Below, one piece after another: positions 763-54,908 of a stretch of 64,000 nt of DNA. A program made the translations under genes and the position numbers. Source of the stretch: Deltaproteobacteria bacterium (GTDB lineage: Bacteria; Myxococcota; JACPTQ01); NCBI GenBank assembly GCA_016192705.1, contig JACPTQ010000004.1:9398-73397 (forward strand). Reading direction: 5' to 3'. The notes beneath the pieces were generated by a model, which made no database searches, was not told where the DNA came from, and saw only the letters and a list, made by a program, of their open reading frames with translations. Position 1 is the stretch's first letter, and each line of letters starts with the position of its first letter.

Positions 763-3700
763 TTATTCGATTGACCACATCTCGTACTTGTTCGAGATCG
801 GCATCCACTCGCGCATCGGGCGATTGACGCCTGCGCGCGAAAGCTGCTGCCGGAGCACCTGATTTGAAATCGTTTCCTTTTCGATAAGAACAAATCGACG
901 GCCGGGGGTTTTCGCGAAATTGATCATGCGCCGCTCGGCGCCCGCCTTGTGGATCGGATCGACTTCGTTTTTCGAGTAGTAGGTCTCTGTTCGCCAATTC
1001 ATTTGGTATGCGGCGAGAGCGTCTTCATCGAGCACATCGGGAATGAGATGCGTCGCGGCAAGTGGGGCGGCCAGCGCAGCGCCGAACGGTGAATGCACAG
1101 CCGAAAGTGCTGCGATCGCAAGTGGGGCCGGGAGTTCGCGCTGATCGGCGCGCAGATTGTGAAGTGTCGCAAAATACTCGCGCTGCGTCCACGCGTTGTT
1201 GAGCTGGATCATATAGTCGTGCATGGCCCATCCCGCCCAAACGAGCGCAAACCCCGCAAACGCCACGATCGCGCGCCACGTCGCGCCCGGCACGAAAACG
1301 AGCGCTGCGATCATGGCGAGGATCACAAAGATGACGAGGCCCGGCGCAAAATTGAAGACGTCGATGAACGACCGTTTTCCCCAGCGTTCGCAAAGGTCAG
1401 CCAGCATCGGCGCGACGGGTCGCCCTTGCGGGTCCGCGCAGTTTTTCGCCGCGAGCTGCTGCGTCATTCCGGCGATTTCGCCGACGAAGCGACGGACAAC
1501 ATTTCCACCGGGCGTCGGAACGGCATGGTCAAATGCCGTCGCATATTGCTGCGCCGTTTGGTTCGCCTGGTTGTCGTCGCCAACGGGCAGATAAAGAAGT
1601 TGTAGCGGGAGCGCGGCCGTCCGTTCGGCTTTTGAGAGCAAATGGAAGCCGCCGACGCCGCCCACCACGAGCAGGCCGACCGCGGCGACGGACCACTTGA
1701 AGCGCGCGTGCCCTTCGGCGAGGCGCGTTCCAAGCCAGGCACCGGCGACGCCAATCGCCCCAGCCCCCAAAAGAAACCGAAGCGTTGAGTCGGGCCAAAT
1801 CGCGCGAAGGATGACCGCGCCGATCCCAAAGCCCAAAAGGAATCCGGTTGCGCGGAGAATTGTTCGCGCGCGGACGTTCTCGCGATTCGGAATGAGGCCG
1901 AGCATCAAGATGAAAACCGCGAGCCCGAAGAGCGGAACCATCGTTCGCTCGGGTGTGATGCCCCACGGCCACGGGCGCTGATACTTGTAAATGAAAAGGT
2001 TAACCATCTGGACTGAGTCGCGCATCGGATCGTTGCCGACGAAAATTCGGACGAGGTCGTAGCCGACGAACACGAGAATTCCGGCGGCCGCGAGGAACGG
2101 AAGCCGCGACGCTTGCTTGTCGTTCCAAAATTCCGAAAGACCATAGCCGACCGCGATCGCGAGCGCCGGCATCATCGGCATAATGTAGTGGTGGAACTTC
2201 GTCGCCGACATCGTAAAGAGCGTAAACGTCACCGCCATCCAGACGCCGACGAGAACTTTTGCGCGCCGCTCGGGGCTGTCGGGCGACAGCGACTTCCAAA
2301 ACCGCGCTGCCGCAACCGGCAAGAACGCGACCCACGGGAAGGCGCCGTACGCTCCCCACCTCACGAAGTAGTCGAAGCCCGTCAGGTTGTCGCCGTGGAT
2401 TCCAGCGCTCAAGCGGTTCAAGTGGTGTTGCTCAAAAAACTCGCGCCACCAATCCATTCCGTGGCGCGCCCACATCGCGATGTGCCAGGGCAGCGTGGCA
2501 AGCGCGACGATCGCGATGCCGCTCGGGATTCGTGCCTCGATGACGATTCGCCACTCGGCGGTGACGAGGATGTAGCCGAGGATGATCGCGCCCGGGAGCG
2601 CGAAGCCGAGGAGGCCTTTCGAGAGCGTTGCGATGCCGCAACAGAGATAAAAAGCGTAAAGATAGGCGCTGCGCGCGTCGCGGCGCGTCGAGATGAAAAT
2701 GGCGACTGGGATAAAAACTGCGAGGTAGACAAGGGCATGGAGTCCGCCGAAGACTTCGAGCTCGTCCGCGACAAGTGAATACTGCGGCAACGTTGTCAGA
2801 AAAAGGAGAGGGTAAATGACCCAGGTGAGGCGTGGGTTTTCGCCGTCGCCCTCCTTGTGACGAAACATCGCGAGGCCGAAAAAGCCGAGTCCCGCGGTAA
2901 CGAGGGCGACGTACGGCATGTCGGTTAAGCCTTGACGCGACACGAAGAACCAGAACGGCATCGTTGCGAGGATGAGCGCCGATAAGACGGCCACGCGGCG
3001 GCCCAGGAGCTCGCGGCAGAACAGGTAGACGACGGTAATGGCGAAAACGCCGAGCATGACGTGCGGAATGCGAATCGCGAAATCGCCAACGCCGAAAACG
3101 GTGAAGCTCAAGGCTTCAAGCCAGAAGAGGCCGACCGGCTTTGACCAAAACCACTCGTTCTCCCAGAACTGCGAAATCCAATCGCCGCGAACGATCATCT
3201 GACGCGCAACTTCGGCGTAGTGTCCTTCCCACGGGTCGAGGAGACCGAACGTCGTGAGGGTCGGCAAATAAAACGCGAGGCCGAGGCCAGCGACGATAAG
3301 GATATCGAGGCTCCCGCAATCTGTTGTTGGGCGCGGCGTGTTGACGCGATGCGCGCGATAGGCGTGGACGGCGGCGCCAGCCACGGCGAGCAGCAGAAGG
3401 AGCGAGGCGATCGAAAAACCGGTCGCGGGGGGTGGCTGGTTGAAATGTGTGGCGAGTGGACGCGTGAGCGCACCGACCGAGAACTCGAGTCCGGGCGCGA
3501 TGGCGCCGGGGTGAAAGCCGATTGCGGCAAGTGAAGCCGCGCCGAGGTTTTCGGCGAGCGATATCGGCGCATCGAGCGACGTTGCGAAGGCGGCGCGCGG
3601 GCCGAGCGATTCGACGAACGACGCGCCGAGGCCAACCACGAAAAGCGCGGTGCTCGCGAGTGCGAAGAGGCGCTCTCCGGGAAGGTCCGTGCGCGTGAGT

Positions 3701-22331: not shown

Positions 22332-23822
22332 ATGGCGACAGAAAAAGTTGACGCGGTGGTTGTGGGGGCGGGGCCGGGCGGCTATGTCGCGGCGATTCGG
22401 CTTGCGCAGCTTGGGCGGAAGGTGATTCTCGTCGACCGCGAGAAGGTTGGCGGCGTTTGCTTGAACTATGGCTGCATCCCGTCGAAGGCGCTCATTCACG
22501 CGGCGTCGCTCGTCGATGACGCCCGGCGCGCGAAGGAGTTTGGGATCGACGCGGTTGTGAGCGTCGATGTCACGCGGCTTCAGGCGTGGAAGGCGGGCGT
22601 CGTTGAGAAGTTGGTCGGTGGCGTAAAACAGTTGCTTAAGGGGAACGGCGTTGGATTTGTTGAGGGGGCCGCGAAATTCGTAGGCCCACGAACTTTGGAA
22701 GTCACAACGCGCGAGGGCGGGGCCCGCGAGGGCGTGCGGCGACTTGAGGCGACGACGATCATCGTTGCGACGGGGGCGCGGCCGTTTGAGGTGCCGTCGT
22801 TGCCGTTCGATGGTGTGCGCGTCGTTGGGGCGCGCGAGGCGCTCGCGTTCGATCGCGTTCCTGCGCGGCTGCTCGTGGTGGGCGGTGGCGTCATCGGGCT
22901 TGAGCTCGGGACGGTCTACGCGAAGCTCGGGTCGAAGGTGACCGTTGTCGAGATGATGGACCAGCTTCTTCCAGGGGTCGACCCAGACGCGGTGCGGATC
23001 GTCGCGCGCGGGCTCAAGCGGTGGGGCGTCGAGGTGTATGTGAAGTCGAAGGCGATTGGGGTTTCGGGGGGGGCGGATGCGAGAACGAGTACGAGGACGA
23101 GCACGGGCACGACTACGACTACGGGAGCGGGTGCGGGGGCGGGAGCGCGCGGCGTGATTGCCGTGCGCGTAGAGACGCCCGAAAAGGAAATTGTGGTCGA
23201 CGCGGACCGTGTGCTGGTCGCGGTTGGGATGCGGCCGAACACCGAGGGGCTTGGGCTTGACGCCGCGGGGATTGCCGTCGACGCAAAGGGATTCGTGCGC
23301 GTGAACGCGCGGATGGAGACAAGCGTGCCGGGGGTGTTTGCCATCGGCGATGTTTCGGGGCCGCCGCTCCTAGCGCACAAGGCGTCGAAGGAGGGTGAGA
23401 TCGCGGCCGAGGCGTCGTCGGGGCGCGGGGCGACGAACGATGTCGCGGCGATGCCCGCGGCGATTTTCACCGACCCCGAAATCGCGACGGTCGGGATGTC
23501 GGAAGCGGATGCGAAGGCGAAGGGAATCGCCGTCAAGGTTTCGAAGTTTCCGTTTGGCGCGAACGGGCGCGCGCTCACGACGGGTGCGGGCGAAGGGTTT
23601 GCAAAGATCGTCGCGGACGAGGCGACGAAGCGCGTTTTGGGCGCGACGATTGTTGGTGTCGAGGCGTCGAACCTTGTGAGCGAGGTGGCGCTTGCGATCG
23701 AGATGGGGGCCGAGGCTGGCGACATCGGGCTCACGGTGCATCCTCACCCGACGCTGTCCGAGGCGCTCATGGAGAGCGCGAACGCGGTTTTGGGCGAAGC
23801 GATTCACGCGCTGAATCGATGA
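22332..23822 (+). CDS. lpdA: Dihydrolipoyl dehydrogenase (E3) carrying an in-frame low-complexity insertion
   Basis: VVGAGPGGYVAAIRLAQLG...GGVCLNYGCIPSKAL (FAD and redox-disulfide motifs), NAD-binding GGGVIGLE, C-terminal HPHPTLSE. Insertion SGGADARTSTRTSTGTTTTTGAGAGAGARG at ~23066-23150. Confidence 0.95.
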   Translation: MATEKVDAVVVGAGPGGYVAAIRLAQLGRKVILVDREKVGGVCLNYGCIPSKALIHAASLVDDARRAKEFGIDAVVSVDVTRLQAWKAGVVEKLVGGVKQLLKGNGVGFVEGAAKFVGPRTLEVTTREGGAREGVRRLEATTIIVATGARPFEVPSLPFDGVRVVGAREALAFDRVPARLLVVGGGVIGLELGTVYAKLGSKVTVVEMMDQLLPGVDPDAVRIVARGLKRWGVEVYVKSKAIGVSGGADARTSTRTSTGTTTTTGAGAGAGARGVIAVRVETPEKEIVVDADRVLVAVGMRPNTEGLGLDAAGIAVDAKGFVRVNARMETSVPGVFAIGDVSGPPLLAHKASKEGEIAAEASSGRGATNDVAAMPAAIFTDPEIATVGMSEADAKAKGIAVKVSKFPFGANGRALTTGAGEGFAKIVADEATKRVLGATIVGVEASNLVSEVALAIEMGAEAGDIGLTVHPHPTLSEALMESANAVLGEAIHALNR

Positions 23823-34118: not shown

Positions 34119-34652
34119 TTAGCCTTCACCGTTGTCCGGTCGCACGCCCCCTTGCACCGCGACCGACGGTCCGCCGAGCTTCATGAGATCGATTTTCGTT
34201 GTCAGGAAGCCGTTGCGATCGATCTGCGGCTTGGGGTGTTCGCCCGTGTCCATGCGAATCGCGTCGCACGGGCACGCGTCGACGCAGAGGCCGCAGTAAA
34301 CGCACCGCAGCCAATCGATGCTGAACTCGATCGGGAACTTTTCGATTCGGTGGTCGTCGTGTTCGCCCGCTTCAATCTTGATGCAGTGCGCCGGACAAAC
34401 GGTCGCGCAGCACATGCACGCAACGCATCGCACTTGGCCGTCGTCGCGTTTCATGAGGCGGTGAAGGCCGCGAAACCGCTCGGGGTAAGGTTTTTTCTCC
34501 TCCGGATAGTTGAGCGTCACGGTGTTTTTTCGCGTGAGTGTGTTTTCGAGAAAATGCCTGAGCGTGATCGAGAGACCCTTCAGCGTCTCGGTCAGATAGG
34601 AACTCTCGAGCGCCGTCATTCGGTCGCCGTATTTCTCACGCACGCGAATCAA
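34119..34652 (-). CDS. nuoI: NADH-quinone oxidoreductase subunit I (2x[4Fe-4S])
   Basis: CVACMCCATVCP and CVYCGLCVDACP ferredoxin motifs. TTG at 34652 sits 7 nt from a GAGGAGG provided by the repeat element; an ATG (MTALES) lies 10 codons downstream. Confidence 0.9.
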   Translation of the reverse strand: MIRVREKYGDRMTALESSYLTETLKGLSITLRHFLENTLTRKNTVTLNYPEEKKPYPERFRGLHRLMKRDDGQVRCVACMCCATVCPAHCIKIEAGEHDDHRIEKFPIEFSIDWLRCVYCGLCVDACPCDAIRMDTGEHPKPQIDRNGFLTTKIDLMKLGGPSVAVQGGVRPDNGEG

Positions 34653-35815
34653 TGCACTGCCTCCTCTGACCTCTGTGTTCTCAGTGCCTCTGTGGTTACT
34701 CCTATCTTATTTTCTCCTTTCATTGCCGCAGCAACGGCCAGCGCCACGAGAACAACGACGGCGTTCCCGACGAGCAGCGCGACTCTCTGCAGAACGCCGC
34801 CAGCCGGGGTTGCGATGATGACCACCGCTGTCACTACGACATTCCCAATCGACGCCGGCAAAAGCATCTTCCAGCCGAGGTCCATCACTTGATCGTAGCG
34901 GAAGCGAGGCAGTGTCCATCGCACCGTCATCTGCAAAAATGCGATGGCGACGAGCACGGCCAAAAACTTCGCAACGCCCGCAAATTCATACCAGGTCTGC
35001 CCCTCAAACGGCACCCACGGAATCTGCCAGCCGCCAAAAAAGAGCACGGTCGCAAGCGCGCTCCACAAAAACATTTCGATGTATTCGCCCATATAAAACA
35101 TAACGAACTTCATCCCGCTGTACTCGAGAAAATAGCCGGCGACGATTTCTGATTCGCCCTCGGGCAGGTCGAACGGCGCACGTTTTGTCGCCGCCATCGC
35201 CGCAACGAAAAACAGCACGAACGCAACCGGCTGTTTGAAGATTCCCCAGTTCCAGATGGGGCCTGCCTGCGCGACGACGAGTTCCTGCGCGCCGACGGTG
35301 CTAAAGCAGATGAGCACGCCGACGACGGTCAAGCCGAGCGTGACTTCGTATGACAGCATCATCGCCGACGCGCGAAGCGCTCCGAGGAGCGAGTATTTGT
35401 TGTTTGACGCCCACCCCGCGATTGTCGCGCCGTAGACGCCGAGCGACGCGATCCCGAAGATGAAGAGGACGCCGATGTCGAGGTTCGCGATCTGAAGCCA
35501 CGGCCCGAACGGAATGACGGCGAACGTCACAACGGCCGACCAGAACGCGATCATCGGGGCCGCCGTGTGGAGGTAGCGATTTCGTGTCGCGGGGACGAAA
35601 TCCTCCTTTGTCATGAGTTTGATGACATCGGCGATCGGGTGGAAGAGTCCCCACGCGCGAAAGCCGCCGATCGATGCGCGGTTCGGGCCGACGCGGTCTT
35701 GAATCATGGCGCTCTGGCGTCGTTCCGCCCAGCCGGCGAGCGGCGACAGCGCGCCGAGCACAATCGCGAACACGAGAATGACTTTGAGTGTCGAGATGAG
35801 GAGGAGTTCCATCAA
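34649..35815 (-). CDS. nuoH: NADH-quinone oxidoreductase subunit H with ~45-aa C-terminal extension
   Basis: AERRQSAMIQDRVGPNRAS...GGF... and later family motifs. Extension ends ...GENKIGVTTEALRTQRSEEAVH, encoded by the repeat element. Confidence 0.95.
   Translation of the reverse strand: MMELLLISTLKVILVFAIVLGALSPLAGWAERRQSAMIQDRVGPNRASIGGFRAWGLFHPIADVIKLMTKEDFVPATRNRYLHTAAPMIAFWSAVVTFAVIPFGPWLQIANLDIGVLFIFGIASLGVYGATIAGWASNNKYSLLGALRASAMMLSYEVTLGLTVVGVLICFSTVGAQELVVAQAGPIWNWGIFKQPVAFVLFFVAAMAATKRAPFDLPEGESEIVAGYFLEYSGMKFVMFYMGEYIEMFLWSALATVLFFGGWQIPWVPFEGQTWYEFAGVAKFLAVLVAIAFLQMTVRWTLPRFRYDQVMDLGWKMLLPASIGNVVVTAVVIIATPAGGVLQRVALLVGNAVVVLVALAVAAAMKGENKIGVTTEALRTQRSEEAVH
34658..34725 (-). repeat. 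Copy A of a ~60-bp AT-richer repeat element, in frame at the nuoH 3' end / nuoI RBS
   Basis: cctcctctgacctctgtgttctcagtgcctctgtggttactcctatcttattttctcc; ~85% identical to the copy at 36563-36630. GC content clearly below the flanking DNA. Confidence 0.6.
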
Positions 35816-37461
35816 TGCGCTCCCGGTGCAGCGGTTGCGGGCGACGCGGCCGAAGCTTCCCGTGCCGGCCGAAAATCAAACCCCATCTTCGCCGCGAGTT
35901 TCTGGACGATCTGCGTCTCAGGGAGCGCTCGCCCCACGAGCGCGATGCCGCGTCGGAGCTTTTGGTGCATCCCCATCGCGTTGACGAACGTGCCTTCTTT
36001 CTCCGCAAACGTCGCCGATGGAAGCGCCACGGTCGCCGCGTCGACGAGCTCGGATCGATTCGACGCCATCACGATGACCGCGTCCAGCCGCGCCGCGGCC
36101 GACACGAGCCGCGCGCGCGCATCGGGCGACACAGGCAAATTGTTTCCCATGACGATGAGCGCTGACAGCTTTCCGCTTTCGACGTCCGCGACGACATCGT
36201 CCGCCGTGCGCGCCGCGAGTCCGCGTGCAACCGCGCCCATTTCAAGCGCCGCGAGAACGCCGGCACGATTCGGGTTCTTGTCGGCCAAACGCAAAAATGC
36301 GTCGCCTTCGCCGTCGAGCCGCCCGCCCATATAGAACGCGGTCACGCCCAGATGGTCGGCCGCGAATCGCACCACCGCGCGGTTGTCTTCAAGCGTCGCT
36401 TGTGGCGACAACACGACGCCGATCGCCGCGCCTCCTTTCGTCGCGACAACTTTCACCAACTGCTCCGCCGCCACCGCGAGCGCCCGCTCCCACGTCACCA
36501 CGACCGCTTTTCTAGTATGCGGCTCTCGGCTCCCGGCCTTCGCTTCTTCCTTCTTAACGTAGGCTTTCCTCTCCTCCGACCTCTGTGAACTCAGTGTCTC
36601 TGTGGTTACTCCTTTCTTTTCTTCCCTCACCACCGGATCGAGCAAGCGCCCCTCATTCACAAACTTGTAGCTCGCGCGCCCCTCATCGCACATCCAGCAC
36701 TGATTCACCGCCTCGTTGTCGCGCGGTTTCAGCCGAAACACTTTCCCCTCGTTGTGCTCAACCGTGACGTTGCATCCGCGCGCGCACCCGGGACAAACGC
36801 TCGCCGCCTTCTCCAAAAACCACACGCGACACTTGAACCGAAAATCTTTCCACGTGAGCGCCCCGACCGGACACAAGTCGACGACGTTTCCGCAGTACTC
36901 GCCGTGGAGCGGCGAATCCGGAAAGATCGACACCTCGACGCGATCCCCGCGGTTAAAAAAACCCATCTGCGCGTCGCCCGTGATTTCGTCGAAATAACGC
37001 ACGCAGCGCGAACACATCACGCACCGCTCCGAGTCGAGCACGACGCCACCGCCGATGTCTTGCACCTTCGGCTTATGAACCTTGCCGACCGTCGAGCGCG
37101 AGCCGGTCAAGTCGTACACCATGTAATAGTCCTGCAGCGCGCACTCGCCCGCCTGGTCGCATATCGGACAATCGACCGGGTGATTGAGCAGCAAAAACTC
37201 CATGACGCCCGCCTGTGCGGTCTTCACGCGCTCGCTGTCGGTCTTGACGACCATCCCCTCGGCGACGGGCGTCTGGCACGCCGGCACGAGTTTGGGCATT
37301 TTCTCGACTTCGACCAAGCACATCCGGCACTGCGCCGCGATCGACAACTTCGGGTGGTAACAAAACACCGGAATCTCAACGCCCACCTGCTTCGCCGCTT
37401 CGACGAGATTCGTTCCCGCCGCCGCCTCGACATCCTTGCCGTTTATCGTCAGCTTCGCCAT
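35812..37461 (-). CDS. nuoG: NADH-quinone oxidoreductase subunit G (short form, 549 aa) with internal insertion
   Basis: 2Fe-2S CYHPKLSIAAQCRMC, 4Fe-4S HPVDCPICDQAGEC, CVMCSRCVRY. Insertion EEKKGVTTETLSSQRSEERKAYVKKEEAKAG encoded by the second repeat copy. TGATG overlap with nuoD. Confidence 0.9.
   Translation of the reverse strand: MAKLTINGKDVEAAAGTNLVEAAKQVGVEIPVFCYHPKLSIAAQCRMCLVEVEKMPKLVPACQTPVAEGMVVKTDSERVKTAQAGVMEFLLLNHPVDCPICDQAGECALQDYYMVYDLTGSRSTVGKVHKPKVQDIGGGVVLDSERCVMCSRCVRYFDEITGDAQMGFFNRGDRVEVSIFPDSPLHGEYCGNVVDLCPVGALTWKDFRFKCRVWFLEKAASVCPGCARGCNVTVEHNEGKVFRLKPRDNEAVNQCWMCDEGRASYKFVNEGRLLDPVVREEKKGVTTETLSSQRSEERKAYVKKEEAKAGSREPHTRKAVVVTWERALAVAAEQLVKVVATKGGAAIGVVLSPQATLEDNRAVVRFAADHLGVTAFYMGGRLDGEGDAFLRLADKNPNRAGVLAALEMGAVARGLAARTADDVVADVESGKLSALIVMGNNLPVSPDARARLVSAAARLDAVIVMASNRSELVDAATVALPSATFAEKEGTFVNAMGMHQKLRRGIALVGRALPETQIVQKLAAKMGFDFRPAREASAASPATAAPGAH
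36563..36630 (-). repeat. Copy B of the same repeat element, in frame inside nuoG
   Basis: cctcctccgacctctgtgaactcagtgtctctgtggttactcctttcttttcttcc. Same orientation as copy A; translated as KGVTTETLSSQRSEE. Confidence 0.6.
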
Positions 37462-38675
37462 CAGCGATCCAGCTCCCCGGCGATCATGTTGATCCCGTCA
37501 AACGTCGGAACGATGTCCGCGATCATTCCGCCGATGAGCATCTGCGGCAGCGCCTGCATGATCGCGAAGACCGGCCCGCGCACCCGCACCCGATAAGGCT
37601 TTCCGGTGCCGTCCGCAACGATGTAGAAACCGAGTTCACCGTTCGCGGCCTCCGAGAACGAATAGACCGCGCCCGGTGGCACACGGATTCCGTCGTAAAC
37701 GAGCTTGAAGTGGTTCATCATCGATTCGATCGTGTTGTACACGGGGCCCTTCTCTGGCAGCGCGACGCGCGGATCGCTCGACACCACGGGCCCGCCCGGC
37801 ATGCGGTCGAACGCCTGTTCGATGATGCGCCGCGACTGCTCGATCTCTTCGAGTCGAATCAAGTACCGGTCGTAGTTATCGCCTTTGTCACCGACCGGAA
37901 TGTCGAAGTCGAACCGGTCGTAACACGAATACGGGTGCGCCTTGCGGATGTCGTAATCGATCCCCGTCGACCGCAAACACGGCCCCGTAAAGCCCCAGGC
38001 GAGCGCGTCTTCCTGCGAGATGATCCCGACGCCCTCCATGCGATCGAAGAAGATGCGGTGTCGTGTGACGAGCTTGTGAAACTCGCGCATCACGCCCGCC
38101 GCGTCGGTGAGTGCCTGCCGAACCGCGCCGTCCCATCCGTCCGGCATGTCGAGCCACACGCCGCCAACGCGCATGTAGTTGACGGTCAGGCGGTGCCCGG
38201 AAATTTTTTCAAGCAGCTCGTACAGAAATTCGCGCGCCTTGACCGCATACAAAAACGCCGTGAACGCGCCGAGCTCCATGGCGCCCGCGCCGACGCACGT
38301 GAGGTGGTCGCAGATGCGCGATATTTCGCTGGCGATGACGCGGAGAAACTGCGCGCGCTCGGGAACGTCGACCCCCATCAGCTTTTCGACGGCCATCGCG
38401 TACCCAAGCTCGTTCAACATCGGCGAGTTGTAGTTCAACCGGTCGGCGTACGCGAAGACTTGGTTCCACGTCGACACTTCGCCCATCTTCTCGAACCCGC
38501 GGTGCAAGTAGCCGATCTCGACGTCGGCCGCGCGAACCGTCTCGCCATCGAGGCGCAGCGTGAGCTCAATGACACCGTGCATCGTTGGGTGCGACGGGCC
38601 CATCTTGAGGACCATCGGCTCCATCGGCAGGTCGTCGACGTCGAGCGGGTCGCGCGCGGTTTCAGGCGTCGCCAT
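37461..38675 (-). CDS. nuoD: NADH-quinone oxidoreductase subunit D
   Basis: [28 protein letters not shown]... is the canonical NuoD N-terminus. 404 aa. Confidence 0.95.
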
Positions 38676-39234
38676 CGGATTTCTCCCTCACCACCCCAAG
38701 CCCCACCACAAACGGATCGACCGGATTATTTTCGAACACGTGGACCTCGGACTTTCGAAGCGGCACAAGCGGCTGGCGCCCCGCGACGGGATAGTCTTTG
38801 CGGAGCGGGTGCCCCTCGAATCCGTCCCACATCAAGATGCGGCGCAGGTTCGGGTGTCCATCCACGCGCACGCCAAACATGTCCCAGAGCTCGCGCTCGA
38901 ACCAATCGGCGCCGCGCCAAACGCCCGTCACGCTCGGCACCCACGCGTCGTCACCGTCGTCGACGCGCACCTTCAACGTGACGCGGTGGCGTTTCGTGAT
39001 CGACTTCAATTGAAAGACGACATCGAACCGCGGCGTGCGGCGATCGAGCCAATCGACAGCCGTCACGTCGACGAACAGATTCATCGCGAAATCGGCGTCG
39101 TCCTTTAAGAAGCGGCAAACATCGACGAGAATCTCGCGCTTCAAAACCGCGCAGTCATCGCCACGTTCTGTTGCCGTTTCAACAACGCCGTCCTCGTATC
39201 GCTCCTTCAGCCGCTCCAGAATCGCCTGACTCAT
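38662..39234 (-). CDS. nuoC: NADH-quinone oxidoreductase subunit C
   Basis: Internal start [19 protein letters not shown]... The track N-terminal 75 aa are R-rich. [12 protein letters not shown] motif. Confidence 0.9.
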
Positions 39235-39779
39235 TTCGACGCCGCCTCGCGACGCGCCCAGCGCTCGGGTCCCTCGCGGTCGATCTTTTCTTGGAGCAAC
39301 ATGACCGCATCGAGCACCGCCTCCGGCCGCGGCGGGCACCCTGGGATGTAAACGTCGACCGGCACGATGCAGTCGACGCCCTGCACGGTCGCATAGTTGT
39401 CGTAAAAGCCGCCCGACGACGCACACGCGCCAAACGCGATGACCCACTTCGGCTCGCACATCTGATCGTAGACGCGCTTCAAAACCGGCGCCTGCTTGTG
39501 TGAAATCGTCCCGACCACGAACATCACGTCGGCTTGGCGCGGCGAAAACCGCGGCGCCTCGGCCCCGAACCTACCCGGGTCGTAGTGCGAGCACATCCAA
39601 CTCATGTACTCCATGCCGCAGCACGCCGTCACAAACGGGTACTGAAATATCGACCAGCGCCGCCCCCAGTTGATGATGCCCTGCGCGCCACCGGGCTTCG
39701 TAACCTCGTCGAGCCGCGTGACCATCACGCTCCCCTCGAGGAGCCCAGCGCCGCTTGACTCGCCGTTGTTCAATCCCAT
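39231..39779 (-). CDS. nuoB: NADH-quinone oxidoreductase subunit B
   Basis: [22 protein letters not shown]...GACASSGG...CPPRPE motifs. Start placed at MGLNNG (39779), overlapping the nuoA end by 10 nt. The upstream 124 aa of the track ORF are R-rich. Confidence 0.85.
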
Positions 39780-40126
39780 TCGAGCGCTCCCTTTTTCCAT
39801 ACATAGATGAAGCCGAGAACGAGCACGCCGAGGAAAACGCCCATCTGAACGAGCCCGACGACGCCCAGGCCTTTCGCGACGACCGCCCACGGATAGAGGA
39901 AGACGATTTCGATGTCGAACGCGATGAAGAGGAGCGCGACGAGATAGAATTTTATGCTGAAGCGCGCGTGCGCCGAGCCGGTCGACTCGCGACCACACTC
40001 GAACGGTTTTTGTTTTTCTGGGGTGGCGTTGCGCGGGCCGAGCAGCGATTTTAGGGCCAGCATGCCGCCCGCGACCGCGATTCCAGCGACGATCATAAGG
40101 AGGACGGGGAGGTAACTGGACAACAT
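39770..40126 (-). CDS. nuoA: NADH-quinone oxidoreductase subunit A
   Basis: 118 aa, three TM helices, conserved FECG...FDIE...VFLYPWA pattern. Confidence 0.9.
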   Translation of the reverse strand: MLSSYLPVLLMIVAGIAVAGGMLALKSLLGPRNATPEKQKPFECGRESTGSAHARFSIKFYLVALLFIAFDIEIVFLYPWAVVAKGLGVVGLVQMGVFLGVLVLGFIYVWKKGALEWD

Positions 40127-40216
40127 AGGTCCACATCCTTTCCTTCGTCATGATTACACATTTTCCCTAACGCTGGAAGCAAGTTGGAGTGTCGTTGGAG
40201 CGTTGAGACGGGGAGG

Positions 40217-41116
40217 TTACTTGCCGCCGGCGGCGCGCAGATCGGCGATGCAGTCGGCGTCGAAGTCGTTCGGCACCGTGCCAAGGAGTTGCGACACGAG
40301 GCTCGACTCGACGGCCCAATACATGACGCAACTTTGGCTGGTGTCGTGCGCGCCGTGCGCCGCGTCCTGGTGCGGGCGCTGCATCGCGACGCCGTTCCCG
40401 ACGAGCCCCAAGTTGTGGCCGGCTTCGTGGACGATGACCGCCTCCTCGATCACGTTGCCCGTGACGAGGACCGTCGCCGATTCGCTCATCGCGTCTTTGA
40501 ACATCGCGATCGCCGAGCCGGTGTGCGAGACGCCGAGGACGCGCGCGTTGCTCGTGTCGCCTTCGTAGCCGCCGCCTATATAGAGGAGGTAGAGGACAGC
40601 GGTGTCGCCCGCCGTGTAGCGGCTGCGGTGCTGTCGCTCGAGGTCGCGGAGGTCGGCGAGGCGCCAGGTGGTTGTCGCTTGCGTTGGGATTTCGGTGTCG
40701 ACGATGACCGTGATGCCGTCGGGTTTGTTGCAGCGTGCTTCGAGGCGCTGTTTGAGGAGGTTGAGCGCACCGGTGTTGGGCGCCTTCCCGCGAACGTAAT
40801 CGACTTCGACGACGAGGCGGCGGTAGCGCGTGGCGGTGAGGTAGTCGGTCGCTATCGAGCCGCTCCAACCTTGGTCGGGGGGGCCGATCGGCACGCCTGC
40901 GTCCGCGCCCGCCCCCGCGTCCGCACCCGCGCCCGCATCCGTAGCTGCATCCGCGCCCGCACCCGCGTCCGCTCCCGTTCCCGCATCCGAGCCCGCGTCC
41001 ACCGCGCGTTCACCTGGCGAAGTCGGGAGGTTCGGGGAGTCAAAGGTTCGGGGCGGAAGCCCAGTGCAGGCGAGCAAGCTGAGAGCGAGAAGTTTAGACA
41101 GAATTAACGATTTCAT
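40217..41116 (-). CDS. Lipoprotein with (DAG)n repeat linker and metzincin-like zinc-peptidase motif
   Basis: Start MKSLILSKLLALSLLAC at 41116. AGSDAGTGADAGAGADAATDAGAGADAGAGADAG. HEAGHNLGLVGNG...H. Confidence 0.7.
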   Translation of the reverse strand: MKSLILSKLLALSLLACTGLPPRTFDSPNLPTSPGERAVDAGSDAGTGADAGAGADAATDAGAGADAGAGADAGVPIGPPDQGWSGSIATDYLTATRYRRLVVEVDYVRGKAPNTGALNLLKQRLEARCNKPDGITVIVDTEIPTQATTTWRLADLRDLERQHRSRYTAGDTAVLYLLYIGGGYEGDTSNARVLGVSHTGSAIAMFKDAMSESATVLVTGNVIEEAVIVHEAGHNLGLVGNGVAMQRPHQDAAHGAHDTSQSCVMYWAVESSLVSQLLGTVPNDFDADCIADLRAAGGK

Positions 41117-41159: not shown

Positions 41160-42800
41160 TCACGGCCGAAACGTCACCGAGAACGACTCGCCACCCGCGA
41201 TGACGCCGCCGTCCGCGACGAACTGCGCAACGCAGCCGCCGGGAATCGTGTCGAAAGCGACGGGGCCGGGCGATGCGGCCACAATCCCCGAGCACGAGCC
41301 GGTACGTCGCACAACCGGCGCGAAGGCGACGGCCCCAGTTGGCACCGGCTGCGAGAACGAGTAGTTGCCGCCCGAAATCGTGAAAGCGCCTTCGGTGGGC
41401 GCGTACGGGGCGCTCTGCGCGCGGCGCTCGAGATCGTCGCCGATCGATGCGAGCGTTGGTGCGCCGAGGCCCAGGGGCGACACGAGGAGGAGCTGCGTCG
41501 CGCTTCGGGCGGTCGTCGGGAAGGCGCCAATTCGGAGCGACAACGATGTGAATCGCCCGGCGCTCGTTTCGCACGTTGCGCTCGTTGCGCCGGGGAACCC
41601 ACCGAAAAGCGCGAGGGCGTGCGGTGGGATTGCGTTCGCCGCGCGGAGGGCAATCCAATCCATCGCACCTGCGATCGAGCAGCCGCTCTGCGGATTTGCG
41701 ACGGTTACGAGCGCGCCGCCGTCGGCGACTTGAAAGAGGGCGGTCGCGGTCGGCTCGTCGCGGCCGGCGAGGACGATGCGGGCGGGTGCCTGCGATTGGA
41801 AGAGCCCGCCGGGCGGCGTGACGGTCGTTTGAACGAACATTTGGCCCGTCGTGTAGACGGTGTAGTCGCGCGCAATGTCCCAGGTGTCGTCGTGGTCGCT
41901 GGCGCTTGTGCAGGTGGGCGTTCGTCCGGCGCGCGTCGGGTGTGAGACGGAGCGCAGGCGGGCGCGCACGCGATTCGCCTCGAGGAGCGTGAGGTGCGCT
42001 GTCGGGCCATCGGGGTCGCAAGAGTCAGAGCCCGCGGCCATTTCGTATGGGGTGCCGGAGACCGGCGACTCGAGCTTCGCGAAATCGATGAGCGTAAACG
42101 AAGCGCCGCCATCGGCGCCGGGCGCTCCGGCCGCGAGGTTATCGGTTGGCGATGAGGAGGCGAGGTCGTACCAGCCTGTGATGCCACCGCCGCCCTTTGG
42201 GTCGAAGACCAAGCGCAATGCGCCGGCATCGCTCGCGATCATCGTGTGGAGCTCGACGGTTTCGTCGAACGGGATGGCGAGCGGCGTCGCGTTCGACGTG
42301 ACGCGCGTGCACGTAGACGAGCAGCGAAGGATTTTGAGCCACGGCGGCGTGATTTCGGTCCCCGCGTCGTTCCCCGCATCCGCCCCCGCGTCCGCTACCG
42401 CGTCGGCACCCGCATCGGCATCCGCACCCGCGTCCGTTTCCGCTCCCGCGCCCGCATCCGCTACTGCTACCGCCCCCGCGTCCGCACCCGCATCCGCGCC
42501 GGCGTCTGCGCCCGCTACCGCCCCCGCGTCCGTCACACGTCCGGCGTCCCCGCCCGCATCCGCCCCCGCACCCGCGTCCACACCCGCGTCCGCAGGCCAC
42601 GCCACGCGCGAAGGAGCTTCGCTCGGCGCCATGCACAGGCCGCCCGCGCCGGTATCGACGCACAACTCGCCGCCGGGGCACGGCGCGCCGCCGACGTCAC
42701 ATCGATATCGGCCATCGCTCAAGTCGACGCCGACTCCGCAGCCCACGAAGGCGATCGCGACGACAGTGGTTCCAAATCTAAGTGGTAAACGTCGAGTCAT
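41160..42800 (-). CDS. Lipoprotein with Cys-rich N-terminus and long (DAG)n repeat linker, hypothetical
   Basis: AAGGGAGA RBS. MTRRLPLRFGTTVVAIAFVGC lipobox. ~70 aa of D-A-G-based repeats. The track ORF starts at 42974, but that part is R-rich. Confidence 0.7.
   Translation of the reverse strand: MTRRLPLRFGTTVVAIAFVGCGVGVDLSDGRYRCDVGGAPCPGGELCVDTGAGGLCMAPSEAPSRVAWPADAGVDAGAGADAGGDAGRVTDAGAVAGADAGADAGADAGAVAVADAGAGAETDAGADADAGADAVADAGADAGNDAGTEITPPWLKILRCSSTCTRVTSNATPLAIPFDETVELHTMIASDAGALRLVFDPKGGGGITGWYDLASSSPTDNLAAGAPGADGGASFTLIDFAKLESPVSGTPYEMAAGSDSCDPDGPTAHLTLLEANRVRARLRSVSHPTRAGRTPTCTSASDHDDTWDIARDYTVYTTGQMFVQTTVTPPGGLFQSQAPARIVLAGRDEPTATALFQVADGGALVTVANPQSGCSIAGAMDWIALRAANAIPPHALALFGGFPGATSATCETSAGRFTSLSLRIGAFPTTARSATQLLLVSPLGLGAPTLASIGDDLERRAQSAPYAPTEGAFTISGGNYSFSQPVPTGAVAFAPVVRRTGSCSGIVAASPGPVAFDTIPGGCVAQFVADGGVIAGGESFSVTFRP
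42340..42600 (-). repeat. Tandem 9/18-bp coding microsatellite (DAG-repeat); a second array at ~40880-41000
   Basis: Iterated gcgtccgcacccgcgcccgcatccgc-type units on the + strand in both adjacent lipoprotein genes. Confidence 0.6.
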
Positions 42801-42810
42801 TTTTTCTCCC

Positions 42811-43932
42811 TTAACGAGAATTTGTGAGAAGTAGAACGAGCCCGGTCGCGAATGACGCGCCCGCCGTGATGAACATCGTGTTCGCGACCGTCGCCTGGGA
42901 CGATGCGCGGCCGCTCGCCGCGTTCGCATCGTCGACGGTGAGGGCGCCGCTCGACTTTTGCGCGTTGAAATCATTTGCCGTCGCGCGATTGAGAATTCCG
43001 AACACGGTTCCGATCGCGAGCGAGGCGCCAGCCGTTCCGAGTAGGCTCCAGCCGATGATGCGTTTCGCGCGGCTCCGCGGCAGAGGTGGGGACGGTTTCA
43101 TGGTGGCGATGGCGATCGGCGCCGGCTGTGCGGCGCGCGTCACGACAACAGGGACCGCGAGTTTCTCGAGCATGAAAGAGAGCGCATGCGGTGCGTCGGC
43201 CTCAACGACCATCTCGGTTTTCACCGATTTGTAGCCGCGGTGGTCGATGGCGATTCGAAGGCGACCGGGTGCGACGTCGATGTTGTCGATTGGGGTGGCG
43301 CCGATCGTCGCGCCGTCCAGCCGAACCGTCGCGCCGCGCGGCGATGTGACGATCGAAACGCGCCCTGCGATGGGGCCCAGCTTAACGTCGACGTTGGCAA
43401 CGGTGTCGAGTGCGACGACGACGCGCCGCTCCTCGAATCGACGTCCGGCGCCGACGCGCACAGCGTGCACGCCGACTGCGATGTCGACCGCGCCGCCGCA
43501 GCGCCCGCTCGCGCGACCATCGATTTCGACGATCGCCTCCGCTCGGTCACAGCGTACGACTATCTTTCCGCGCATCGACGCGCGCACATGCTGGAAAAGA
43601 TCGACGAGCGCCGGCGGGAAGCGGGTTGGGTCGTACGCTGCGCTCGCGTCGAGCTCGAGCGCCCGTCGCACACTCATGCGCGCTTCGCGCACACGATCGG
43701 ACGCCGATTGGACCGCACCGAGAAGCAAGTAGGCTTCTGCGAGTTGCGGCGGCGATGCTTGTAGGCGAACGGCGTGGAGCAAGATCTTGTTCGCGCGTTT
43801 TGTTTCGCCATCCATATAGGCGCGCGTCGCCTGTTCGACGGCCGACTCGAATTCGGCGGCAACTGCGGTTGTGGGTGCGAGTGCGCCCACGATTTGCGCG
43901 ATGAAAAGTGCGTATGCTAATGGTCGATTCAT
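42811..43932 (-). CDS. PEGA-domain secreted/membrane protein
   Basis: Signal peptide. PEGA-like strands (IVTSPRGATVRLDGATIGATPI). C-terminal TM helix. Confidence 0.75.
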   Translation of the reverse strand: MNRPLAYALFIAQIVGALAPTTAVAAEFESAVEQATRAYMDGETKRANKILLHAVRLQASPPQLAEAYLLLGAVQSASDRVREARMSVRRALELDASAAYDPTRFPPALVDLFQHVRASMRGKIVVRCDRAEAIVEIDGRASGRCGGAVDIAVGVHAVRVGAGRRFEERRVVVALDTVANVDVKLGPIAGRVSIVTSPRGATVRLDGATIGATPIDNIDVAPGRLRIAIDHRGYKSVKTEMVVEADAPHALSFMLEKLAVPVVVTRAAQPAPIAIATMKPSPPLPRSRAKRIIGWSLLGTAGASLAIGTVFGILNRATANDFNAQKSSGALTVDDANAASGRASSQATVANTMFITAGASFATGLVLLLTNSR

Positions 43933-44636
43933 CGGTTCTCCAGATCGATCGAGAGGCGTTTTTGTTCGCCAGCGTTTAGGACAACAGATTTCGAGACGGT
44001 TTTTCGCCCGGCCTTTTCGAAGCGAAGCTCGTGCGTGCCCGGCACAAGTGTCATCGTCGTCGGCGTTGCGCCGCGGGCCTGGTCGTCAACAAAAACGTGG
44101 GCCCAGCTCGGCTCGCCGCGTTCATGCACGGTGACGAAGAGTTTGGCGGGCGGCAGTCGGCGAAGCGCGATCGAGCGCACGATCATCTCGCCAGGCTTCG
44201 CGTCTATGGGCAACGTTGTCGACGCGAATCCCGGATGCGTCGCAACGAGGGTGTGCGCGCCGGGACGAATCTCGACCGCCGATGCCGTTGTGATTGGGCG
44301 AAAGCCGTTCAGCGTGACCCGCGCAGTCCGCGGTGTCGCGACGACGACGAGTTTGGCCGGCGCGGGACTTTGACGCAAAGGCGCAGAGCCGCAAAGGGGA
44401 GAGGGTTCCTTTTGTGCGTCTTTGCTCCTTTGCGCCTTGGCGTTGGTATCCACTGTGGAATCGGCAGTCCTGGAGTCGAATCCAGTCTTATTCGGCTGAT
44501 TGCCGATCGCAAACGCGACGAGCGCGAGACCTGCGGCGCTCGCGAGCGTGGTCGCGACGAACGCGAATCTTCGGCGTCGCCGGGCGGGTTGAGCGAGCGT
44601 CTCTTCGACGAACCAGTCGATTCGCTTGTCATCCAT
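43929..44636 (-). CDS. PEGA-domain protein with N-terminal membrane anchor
   Basis: N-terminal TM FAFVATTLASAAGLALVAFAI. PEGA-like VATPRTARVTLNG and VATHPGF. AGGAGG RBS. Overlaps the next gene start by 4 nt. Confidence 0.7.
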   Translation of the reverse strand: MDDKRIDWFVEETLAQPARRRRRFAFVATTLASAAGLALVAFAIGNQPNKTGFDSRTADSTVDTNAKAQRSKDAQKEPSPLCGSAPLRQSPAPAKLVVVATPRTARVTLNGFRPITTASAVEIRPGAHTLVATHPGFASTTLPIDAKPGEMIVRSIALRRLPPAKLFVTVHERGEPSWAHVFVDDQARGATPTTMTLVPGTHELRFEKAGRKTVSKSVVLNAGEQKRLSIDLENR

Positions 44637-53933: not shown

Positions 53934-54908
53934 TCAGCGTTTCTTTTTGAGAAGGTCGATCGCGTCGTGCGCCGCTTGGCGAATCGCTGGGTGTTCGTGA
54001 CCCTTTTCGAGCGTCCATAAAAACGCCTCCGCCTTTGCTCCGCCCAGATCGCCGAGCGCATAAATAACTTCACGCAGCGTCTGGGGATCCTTGCGTGCCG
54101 CGAAATCGATGAGGGGATTCACCGCGCGAGCATCCTTGAGCGACACGAGGGCGCCCACCGCGCGTCGTGCAACGGCGGGCTCATCGTCTTTGAGCAGCGC
54201 GACGAAAAGATCAAAGTGGGCAGGGTCGCGTCTCTCCGCGAGCTCGTTGGCCGCAATCAGTCGCCGTTCGCCTTCCGCCCCTCCGTCGGGGCGCGACTTC
54301 AGCAAGGCCACCAGTTGGTCAACCGGCAGCTTCGGGACGCGGACTTTCAACGCGAGCGACTCTACCGTGTCTCGAACGGCCCGCTCCACGATCTCGCGGT
54401 ACGTCCTGTCCGCGCCTTCGCCCTTTGGGACTGGGCGAAAACCGATCGCGTTGGCTTCGAACCGGTCGTCGTCGAGGCTGAGGACTCCGCTCACGGCCAC
54501 GAACGACTCATGCTTCTTTCGCGTCGCGACCGCAACGCGAACTTGCAAACGACCCGAAGCCGCCGTCTTTTGGCGTCCTCCCTGCGCGCGAAACGCTTCG
54601 AACACAATTCGTTCGAGCTCCGCCTTCTCCATCGGGCGCCGGTCGCGTGGAACAGCGGCGCCGGTCTCGTCGCTGACCCAGATCTCCCCGACGACAATCG
54701 GTTGTGCGCCTGCGCTGACGGCCACCTTCACTATTTCTTCGCGAGCGTTCGTGGTCGTCGTCGTGCCCGTGCTCGCCATCGTTCTCGTGCTCGCGATGTT
54801 GGCATCCGCACGGGTCGGTGAATCACCATGGTCCTTGCATGAAGCCGAGATCAACAAGATGCCAAGAACGATCGCACGGCCAGACGAAAGATGATCAACC
54901 GCTCCCAC
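53934..54908 (-). CDS. HEAT/PBS-lyase repeat protein, possibly a lipoprotein; start uncertain
   Basis: C-terminal HEAT-like repeats (DPAVARRAVGALVSLKDARAVNPLI). A candidate GTG start at 54908 gives VGAVDHLSSGRAIVLGILLISASC. Upstream of this the 518-aa track ORF is R-rich. Confidence 0.5.
   Translation of the reverse strand: MGAVDHLSSGRAIVLGILLISASCKDHGDSPTRADANIASTRTMASTGTTTTTNAREEIVKVAVSAGAQPIVVGEIWVSDETGAAVPRDRRPMEKAELERIVFEAFRAQGGRQKTAASGRLQVRVAVATRKKHESFVAVSGVLSLDDDRFEANAIGFRPVPKGEGADRTYREIVERAVRDTVESLALKVRVPKLPVDQLVALLKSRPDGGAEGERRLIAANELAERRDPAHFDLFVALLKDDEPAVARRAVGALVSLKDARAVNPLIDFAARKDPQTLREVIYALGDLGGAKAEAFLWTLEKGHEHPAIRQAAHDAIDLLKKKR

Follow-up and report, generated by a model that had tools for sequence, protein, structure and literature searches.

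Two in-frame repeat copies in nuoG and nuoH of a deltaproteobacterial genome as probable solo arms of a widespread MITE-like repeat family

Two in-frame repeat copies in the nuo operon

Two copies of a short repeat are found in frame in the complex I genes nuoG and nuoH of a deltaproteobacterium, and both are probably tolerated solo terminal arms of a repeat family that resembles miniature inverted-repeat transposable elements (MITEs). They lie in a 64,000-nt stretch that was analysed as a whole (hereafter the window; Deltaproteobacteria bacterium, assembly GCA_016192705.1, contig JACPTQ010000004.1, positions 9,398 to 73,397). A repeat search of the window yielded a single two-copy direct repeat family, 54 nt long with 87% identity, at 34661-34714 (copy A) and 36571-36624 (copy B), the copies having the same orientation and being 1910 nt apart. 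Pairwise alignment widens them to approximately 58 nt, about 34658-34717 and 36568-36627 on the minus strand, and blastn-short scores the one against the other at E = 7e-11. A 24-nt core pattern, allowing up to 3 mismatches, matches the window at these two sites only, both on one strand, and found no match in 100 dinucleotide-preserving shuffles. A Logan contig from a separate assembly (L001) contains the two copies as well. Local GC content is 0.47-0.52 for copy A and 0.50 for copy B, against 0.62 for the window. A preliminary description of this DNA had reported two similar direct copies 1.9 kb apart and lower in GC than their surroundings; both observations hold.

Copy A is in nuoH (34649-35815) and copy B in nuoG (35812-37461; NCBI MBI3070615.1), followed by nuoI (34119-34652), all on the minus strand. 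The gene order of the cluster is nuoB-C-D-G-H-I; the gene upstream of nuoG, earlier labelled nuoF, is nuoD (PF00346). The same order occurs in the two nearest homologous contigs (including L120), and the locus (34119-37461 and 37461-40151) is without nuoE/F and nuoJ-N, its NuoG being a short form of ~525 residues.

The two copies occupy the same reading frame, with peptides GVTTEALRTQRSEE and GVTTETLSSQRSEE. The NuoH C-terminus reads ...AAAMKGENKIGVTTEALRTQRSEEAVH*, of which copy A encodes the last 24 residues (GENKIGVTTEALRTQRSEEAVH), while NuoG contains ...REEKKGVTTETLSSQRSEERKAYVKKEE..., with copy B read as KKGVTTETLSSQRSEE; the translations of both open reading frames (ORFs) thus bear out the earlier claim of one repeat in frame in two different genes. 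Within each copy (34670-34695 in A, 36580-36605 in B) is a 26-nt core, CCACAGAGnCACTGAGnnCACAGAGG, built of three 7-nt units with fixed spacers: GTAAC-CACAGAG-G-CACTGAG-AA-CACAGAG in copy A and GTAAC-CACAGAG-A-CACTGAG-TT-CACAGAG in copy B. The internal direct repeat noted previously (CACAGAGG...CACAGAGG) is real, but the actual arrangement is one of three units, CACAGAG / CACTGAG / CACAGAG. The cores differ at three positions, which are exactly the three spacer positions, and all three differences are non-synonymous (A/T, R/S, T/S), so that conservation is at the level of nucleic acid, in the unit pattern, rather than of codons or protein. Two of the three sense frames are open through the arm, and a frame shared by A and B is therefore expected by chance about one time in two.

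Comparison with homologues shows what each copy has added. NuoG of the window has a ~33-residue insertion between its Fe-S and molybdopterin-like domains that is absent from all 17 aligned homologues, in keeping with the lineage-specific insertion previously suggested; it corresponds to ~100 nt at 36514-36615 (minus strand), with boundaries that are fuzzy in the alignment, and copy B makes up its 5′ half. In the AlphaFold2 (AF2) model of NuoG the insert has predicted local distance difference test (pLDDT) scores of 43-59, while the flanking blocks score 92 and 97. NuoH, as had been proposed, is extended past the conserved C-terminus, running 46 residues beyond it: first an extra hydrophobic helix, which is also present in one other lineage, and then the 24 repeat-encoded residues. 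No homologous nuo cluster examined has such arms.

The core-pattern scan of the window found no complementary partner arm near either copy, and RNA folding, put forward as a check in the preliminary description, gave no significant structure (z +1.2 to -0.5) and no palindrome. Lacking a partner and structure, the nuo copies are best described as solo forward arms of a larger element type, not as complete elements; unstructured as they are, nothing should impede transcription or translation. Two candidates for a decayed partner arm beside them (CCGGTGGTGA and CTGCGGCAAT) were dismissed, as the resemblances sit in conserved codons. On either side of the core, copies A and B have further sequence in common, ~22 nt on the 5′ side and 9 nt on the 3′ side, with GGAGTAA and TCnGAGGAG in the flanks; it occurs in none of the 122 other copies of the family described below, and a metagenome scan for the core plus the nuo-specific flank found no match. 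Since these flanks were found in no other genome, either the two make up a subfamily peculiar to this genome or one is derived from the other.

The arm family across bacteria

We scanned one genome per species for the exact core, as the pattern CCACAGAG-n-CACTGAG-nn-CACAGAGG with 23 specified bases. The core occurs at more than 118 genome loci in at least 10 phyla, where by our arithmetic ~0.02 matches are expected by chance. The groups represented include Acidobacteriota, Chloroflexota, Planctomycetota, Bacteroidota, Cyanobacteriota (Calothrix isolates), Verrucomicrobiota, Desulfobacterota, Gammaproteobacteria, Armatimonadota, Cloacimonadota, Fidelibacterota and Bdellovibrionota. It is also found in 26 viral contigs, and Nostoc, Anabaena, Calothrix, Gemmatirosa and Bacteroides have it on plasmids. 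In the matched loci the core is nearly always intergenic or non-coding. Long ORFs that run across it in other genomes were considered as in-frame insertions and rejected, being junk frames of high-GC DNA or 5′ leaders. An inverted partner arm within 150 nt, forming a hairpin, accompanies at least 45 of 122 copies (≥37%). Between convergent genes the copies are over-represented (15), between divergent ones under-represented (5); elsewhere than in the window, solo arms between tandem genes are sense in 10 cases and antisense in 9.

Clusters of three similar 7-mers spaced 8-10 nt apart, sought without regard to their sequence, number 263 in the 822 kb of matched loci; the first 40 of these loci, when shuffled, gave none. 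Read on the reverse strand, the arm is unit-NN-unit-N-unit-GT(G/T)AA, with the 2,1 spacer pattern in 176 of 218 arms, and the units vary among CACAGAG, CGCAGAG, CACGGAG, CGCGGAG, CGCAAAG, CACGAAG and CGCCAAG. We define the arm family by three 7-nt units CRCNRAG with 1-2-nt spacers and an outer end TT(C/A/G)AC, a description that includes copies A and B. Forward and reverse arms are paired at 3-600 nt, and so constitute terminal inverted repeats of small elements, as in a MITE.

A contig from Holophagaceae (L037) has two arm-bounded elements, at 2412-2636 and 3159-3390, with a common non-coding core of ~180 nt and different arm unit types (CACAGAG in one, CACCAAG in the other), which suggests that arms and cores move between elements independently of one another.

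Nothing in the window reached the Rfam gathering score, and in 17 element-bearing loci the only Rfam matches overlapping elements were sub-threshold ones to miRNA hairpins. Search of the accessible literature by sequence string found no description of the arm family, and concept searches gave analogies only. To our knowledge none of the DnaA box, the integron attC site, the RNA polymerase elemental pause consensus, the Rho rut site or the targets of HutP/TRAP-like ring proteins fits all the unit variants.

Association with the GxxExxY (PF13366) gene

One of three further elements in the window is E1 (17705-18072), whose forward arm (17705-17732) and reverse arm (18044-18072) surround a truncated gene: its interior (18020-17754, minus strand) encodes the C-terminal ~85 residues of a GxxExxY / PF13366 protein. 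E1 is a truncated cassette between convergent genes, with decayed arms of mixed unit types; there is no intact GxxExxY gene in the window. When the E1 protein fragment was compared by tblastn with all fetched loci that had been selected by their arms, four GxxExxY matches were found, all adjoining arms. Three are full-length ORFs of 125-150 residues with a forward arm on one side and a reverse arm on the other, and the fourth directly follows a forward arm and is cut by the contig end. For an independent test we took 80 metagenome loci picked solely by GxxExxY protein similarity and counted an arm if it lay within 260 nt. Arms were present upstream in 52/76 cases and downstream in 60/77, and 44 of 73 genes had them on both sides. 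The flanked gene, TIGR04256 / PF13366, is PD-(D/E)XK-like and is the only recurrent cargo. PF13366 is listed as a family of unknown function (PMC3424549). Among PADLOC, PHROGs and PDB sequences GxxExxY has only a weak Cas4-like match, and by sequence no solved relative.

The cassette has a regular anatomy. At the 5′ end TTCAC is followed by three CRCRRAG units, after which come the start codon directly, a purine-rich leader or a subterminal hairpin, and then the ORF; at the 3′ end GTGAA follows three CTYYGYG units. Arms of one cassette match one another, with 93.8% Watson-Crick pairs as against 81% with shuffled partners, and the RNA of a cassette that was folded has a terminal stem of ~28 bp (z -4.7). 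G.U wobble pairs were considered as a sign of an RNA-level stem and rejected, as they make up 1% of arm pairs, below the level with shuffled partners. In Desulfobacterota there are non-coding versions of 180-310 nt in which arms and subterminal hairpins are kept and the ORF is gone, the pattern expected of deletion derivatives; subterminal hairpins occur at L061, L118, L082, L094, L087, L050, L076 and L070, and at L150, L157, L172, L175, L192, L196 and L216 as well. The loops of the Desulfobacterota hairpins are conserved and mutually complementary (GGGAGAC on the 5′ side, GTCTCCC on the 3′ side) while the stems vary and covary; these loops might pair as kissing loops or provide a further module for recognition.

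The nuoI start and the cassette 5′ end

The TTG start of nuoI (34652-34650) overlaps the TGA stop of nuoH (34651-34649). Seven nucleotides upstream of it, on the inner side of copy A, is the motif GAGGAGG (34660-34666, minus strand), a probable Shine-Dalgarno sequence. The NuoI N-terminus predicted from this TTG aligns with that of a homologue, which makes it reasonable that GAGGAGG serves as the nuoI ribosome-binding site (RBS), as the preliminary description had proposed; the placement is good, and such use is probable. In GxxExxY cassettes the equivalent position is taken by a purine-rich leader and start codon belonging to the cassette, and the geometry of the nuoH/nuoI junction is like that of a cassette 5′ end: arm, Shine-Dalgarno sequence, start codon.

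Forward arms lie a few nucleotides upstream of host-gene start codons at four other loci (L035, L067, L101 and L046), where AGAGG-containing units could act as Shine-Dalgarno sequences in the manner proposed for nuoI.

Other elements and repeats in the window

Two more members of the arm family are hairpins. E4 (44370-44447) is complete, with two arms of the CGCAAAG unit type (free energy -45 kcal/mol, z -2.9) and lies in frame inside the ORF 43929-44636 (minus strand; MBI3070623.1, a PEGA-domain protein according to NCBI), where it encodes TNAKAQRSKDAQKEPSPLCGSAPLRQS between an N-terminal membrane anchor and a Pfam-matched PEGA domain. No start codon was read directly after E4, and no homologue of the PEGA protein was found. 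It is the third in-frame insertion of the family in the same 64 kb and places a 30-bp stem inside a coding region. E5 (58217-58296), with GCCAAGA/CGCCGAG units, is an intergenic hairpin downstream of a TrkA-like gene (free energy -45 kcal/mol, z -5.9).

The window has repeats of other kinds. Three regions inside long ORFs, 40846-41012, 42353-42621 and 61521-61651, share GC-rich repeats with 6/12-nt periodicity (CGCCCCCGCGTCCGC-like), probably coding repeats of low complexity. At 23079-23123 and 54750-54794, 31.6 kb apart, are the halves of an inverted repeat of 45 nt that is 87% complementary and rich in GAC/GAG/CAC.

Proposed origin of the nuo copies

We propose that both nuo segments are solo terminal arms of the MITE-like family, and we think this the probable explanation. 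The full element consists of two inverted ~30-nt arms, each TT(C/A)AC plus three CRCRRAG units with fixed 1-2-nt spacers, enclosing a few bases (to give a post-gene hairpin), a non-coding core of 120-260 nt, or the ~125-residue GxxExxY gene with its leader and start codon directly after the forward arm. A forward arm with its purine-rich inner leader (GTCrGAGGAG) may have come to two places, the boundary of nuoH with nuoI and the linker of NuoG. Either an element would have inserted and then lost its partner arm, or one copy would have arisen as a duplicate of the other. Such an arm could have persisted because it is open in the frame used, because without a partner it would form no stable stem in the mRNA, and because both sites, the C-terminal tail of NuoH and a NuoG linker modelled at low confidence by AF2, appear permissive. 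The arms would then simply be translated, presumably at little cost, and the GAGGAGG of the element leader may have been taken over as the nuoI RBS.

That the arms are or were mobile is suggested by their dispersal within and between genomes, by the derivative forms, by the unique NuoG insert and by one presence/absence difference between plasmids. In the last case, the genes flanking an intergenic segment of Anabaena cylindrica pANACY.02 (L148, 1100-1950) are 97% identical to those of a Sphaerospermopsis plasmid (L229), while the segments themselves are wholly different, ~350 nt with a solo arm in the former and ~95 nt without one in the latter. The search for an empty site among these cyanobacterial plasmids thus found the whole intergenic segment replaced, and no clean insertion. 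The TTCAC...GTGAA sequences at the outer ends do not form a direct repeat; they prolong the palindrome of the arms.

A broader proposal, which we put forward tentatively and with more doubt than conviction, is that the triple-heptamer arms and the GxxExxY gene together form an undescribed, pan-bacterial and very small selfish element. Its ~125-residue protein would recognize the three CRCRRAG units at each end, either on DNA, in the role of transposase or homing nuclease, or on RNA, by acting on the stem formed between the arms; hairpins, non-coding cores and solo arms would descend from the element as non-autonomous forms, seeding terminator-like hairpins, portable ribosome-binding sites and in-frame peptides (in NuoG, NuoH and the PEGA protein). 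If this is true, the large PF13366 family gains a role. On their own, the nuo copies are an example from outside Rickettsia of a dispersed repeat read in frame inside essential respiratory genes and probably donating an RBS at an operon junction. Recognition of the arms by the protein would make PF13366 function accessible to a simple binding or cleavage assay. The same assay would test where many of the intergenic hairpins come from that Acidobacteriota, Chloroflexota, Planctomycetota, Bacteroidota, Cyanobacteriota and Desulfobacterota contain, and whether the arms give rise to spurious small ORFs and inserted peptides in annotations of these hairpin-bearing phyla.

Several points weigh against a selfish, MITE-like origin. 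We saw no event of transposition, no duplicated target site and no clean empty site, and any nuclease or transposase activity of GxxExxY proteins is hypothetical. Cargo proteins are ~60-70% identical while the 26-mers are identical across phyla; this argues for a strong sequence-specific constraint that a purely selfish, neutral origin does not explain. Three of the five elements in the window are intragenic, as against almost none of the 122 copies elsewhere. The repeat common to both genes accounts for ~58 of the ~100 nt inserted in nuoG, leaving ~40 nt of other sequence. Among 5.8 billion proteins the closest homologue of NuoG has 49% identity, too little to date the insertions or to place their boundaries exactly. 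Finally, the extended NuoH and the insert-bearing NuoG are proteins predicted from ORFs.

The constraint on the core is an argument for a different explanation, that the nuo copies are functional cis-elements selectively retained to coordinate nuoG/H/I expression, either by binding a conserved factor (most plausibly the GxxExxY protein or another recognizer of CRCRRAG triplets) or as unstructured purine-rich translation enhancers. An invariant core beside diverged cargo does point to sequence-specific recognition, each unit contains a Shine-Dalgarno-like AGAGG, forward arms stand directly upstream of host start codons at the four loci named above, the only good Shine-Dalgarno sequence for nuoI comes from copy A, and both copies are sense within one operon. 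Yet no start codon is within reach of the Shine-Dalgarno-like motif of copy B, solo arms between tandem genes show no strand preference elsewhere, the homologous nuo clusters examined are free of arms, and the binding factor is purely hypothetical; we consider this explanation unlikely.

We regard as quite unlikely that the family inserted only once here and that the second copy is a local duplication or gene conversion of the first, made by ectopic repair. The flanks common to A and B alone, the empty metagenome scan for core plus flank, and the short distance and same orientation of the copies would all follow from such an event. Identity is only 87%, however, with differences at spacer positions that are typical of independent family members, and nothing is shared beyond ~58 nt; a single genome-specific subfamily predicts the same result, and the comparison has 64 kb of the genome as its basis. 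The last alternative, that the similarity of A and B reflects a protein-level module, a chance product of codon usage or an assembly artefact, could appeal to their same frame and similar peptides, but is effectively refuted by the empty shuffles, the non-synonymous core differences confined to spacers, the occurrence of the same DNA as non-coding sequence at more than 118 other loci, the even chance of a shared frame, and the independent Logan assembly containing both copies.

Comparison with known systems

Rickettsia palindromic elements (RPEs), to which the preliminary description had likened the nuo copies, are 100-150-bp palindromes known only from Rickettsia, which insert in frame in unrelated genes, housekeeping genes included, with the ORF kept. 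The likeness holds for in-frame behavior, in NuoG, NuoH and at E4: the nuo copies too are a short dispersed repeat that adds a peptide at permissive sites and leaves the ORF intact. It does not extend to the repeat itself, which in the nuo copies is not palindromic and is probably not of an RPE family. The nuo copies are set apart by description as ~55-nt solo arms without self-complementarity, from a multi-phylum family with a three-unit architecture and an associated gene, and their host is a metagenome-assembled genome of 62% GC labelled Deltaproteobacteria.

In the intervening sequences of 23S rRNA an ORF, classically of the family PF05635, lies inside a long stem. The GxxExxY cassettes resemble them in having a small ORF within inverted repeats and a transcript with a long terminal stem, but PF05635 is not the family they contain. 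A link to such intervening sequences was rejected, there being no rRNA in 20 cassette loci or in the window.

The repetitive extragenic palindromic (REP) sequences, their doublet hairpins (REPINs) and the REP-associated tyrosine transposases (RAYTs) form a system of species-specific imperfect palindromes with a GTAG or CGTC tag and a Y1 HUH (IS200-like) protein (PMC3116915, PMC3733652). Here too ~25-30-nt arms occur as singlets and as inverted doublets, the doublets forming hairpins close behind genes; here too a genome has many copies, and a small gene that goes with the repeats has them on its flanks. The arms differ in being direct CRCRRAG triplets without self-complementarity or a GTAG/CGTC tag and in being exact across phyla, and the gene they flank is PF13366 / TIGR04256 rather than a Y1 HUH RAYT.

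Paired tandem octanucleotides of Geobacter metallireducens, with consensus GTTGCTYN and MTYCTGA, have been described as global regulator binding sites (PMC2700814). These also occur in a deltaproteobacterium, consist of 4-5 tandem 7-8-nt units, and are paired on opposite strands at variable distance, both between and within genes; however, they have another consensus, belong to one genus, were read as regulator sites, and had no associated gene reported (PMC2700814). The small dispersed repeat (SDR) and short tandemly repeated repetitive (STRR) heptamer families of Nostocales, and the TAACTGA repeats, are 7-27 nt long, intergenic, and also found in distant phyla, with a means of spread that is unknown (PMC4679880). 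They share with the arms the character of very short dispersed or tandem intergenic repeats across distant phyla and differ from them in sequence, although cyanobacterial arm copies may still match an SDR family.

Its arm is not a palindrome and has no GTAG tag, the gene beside it is not of the HUH type, and its consensus is another; the arm family thus lacks defining features of RPEs, of REPINs and of the Geobacter sites, and we rate it as a MITE/REPIN-like repeat.

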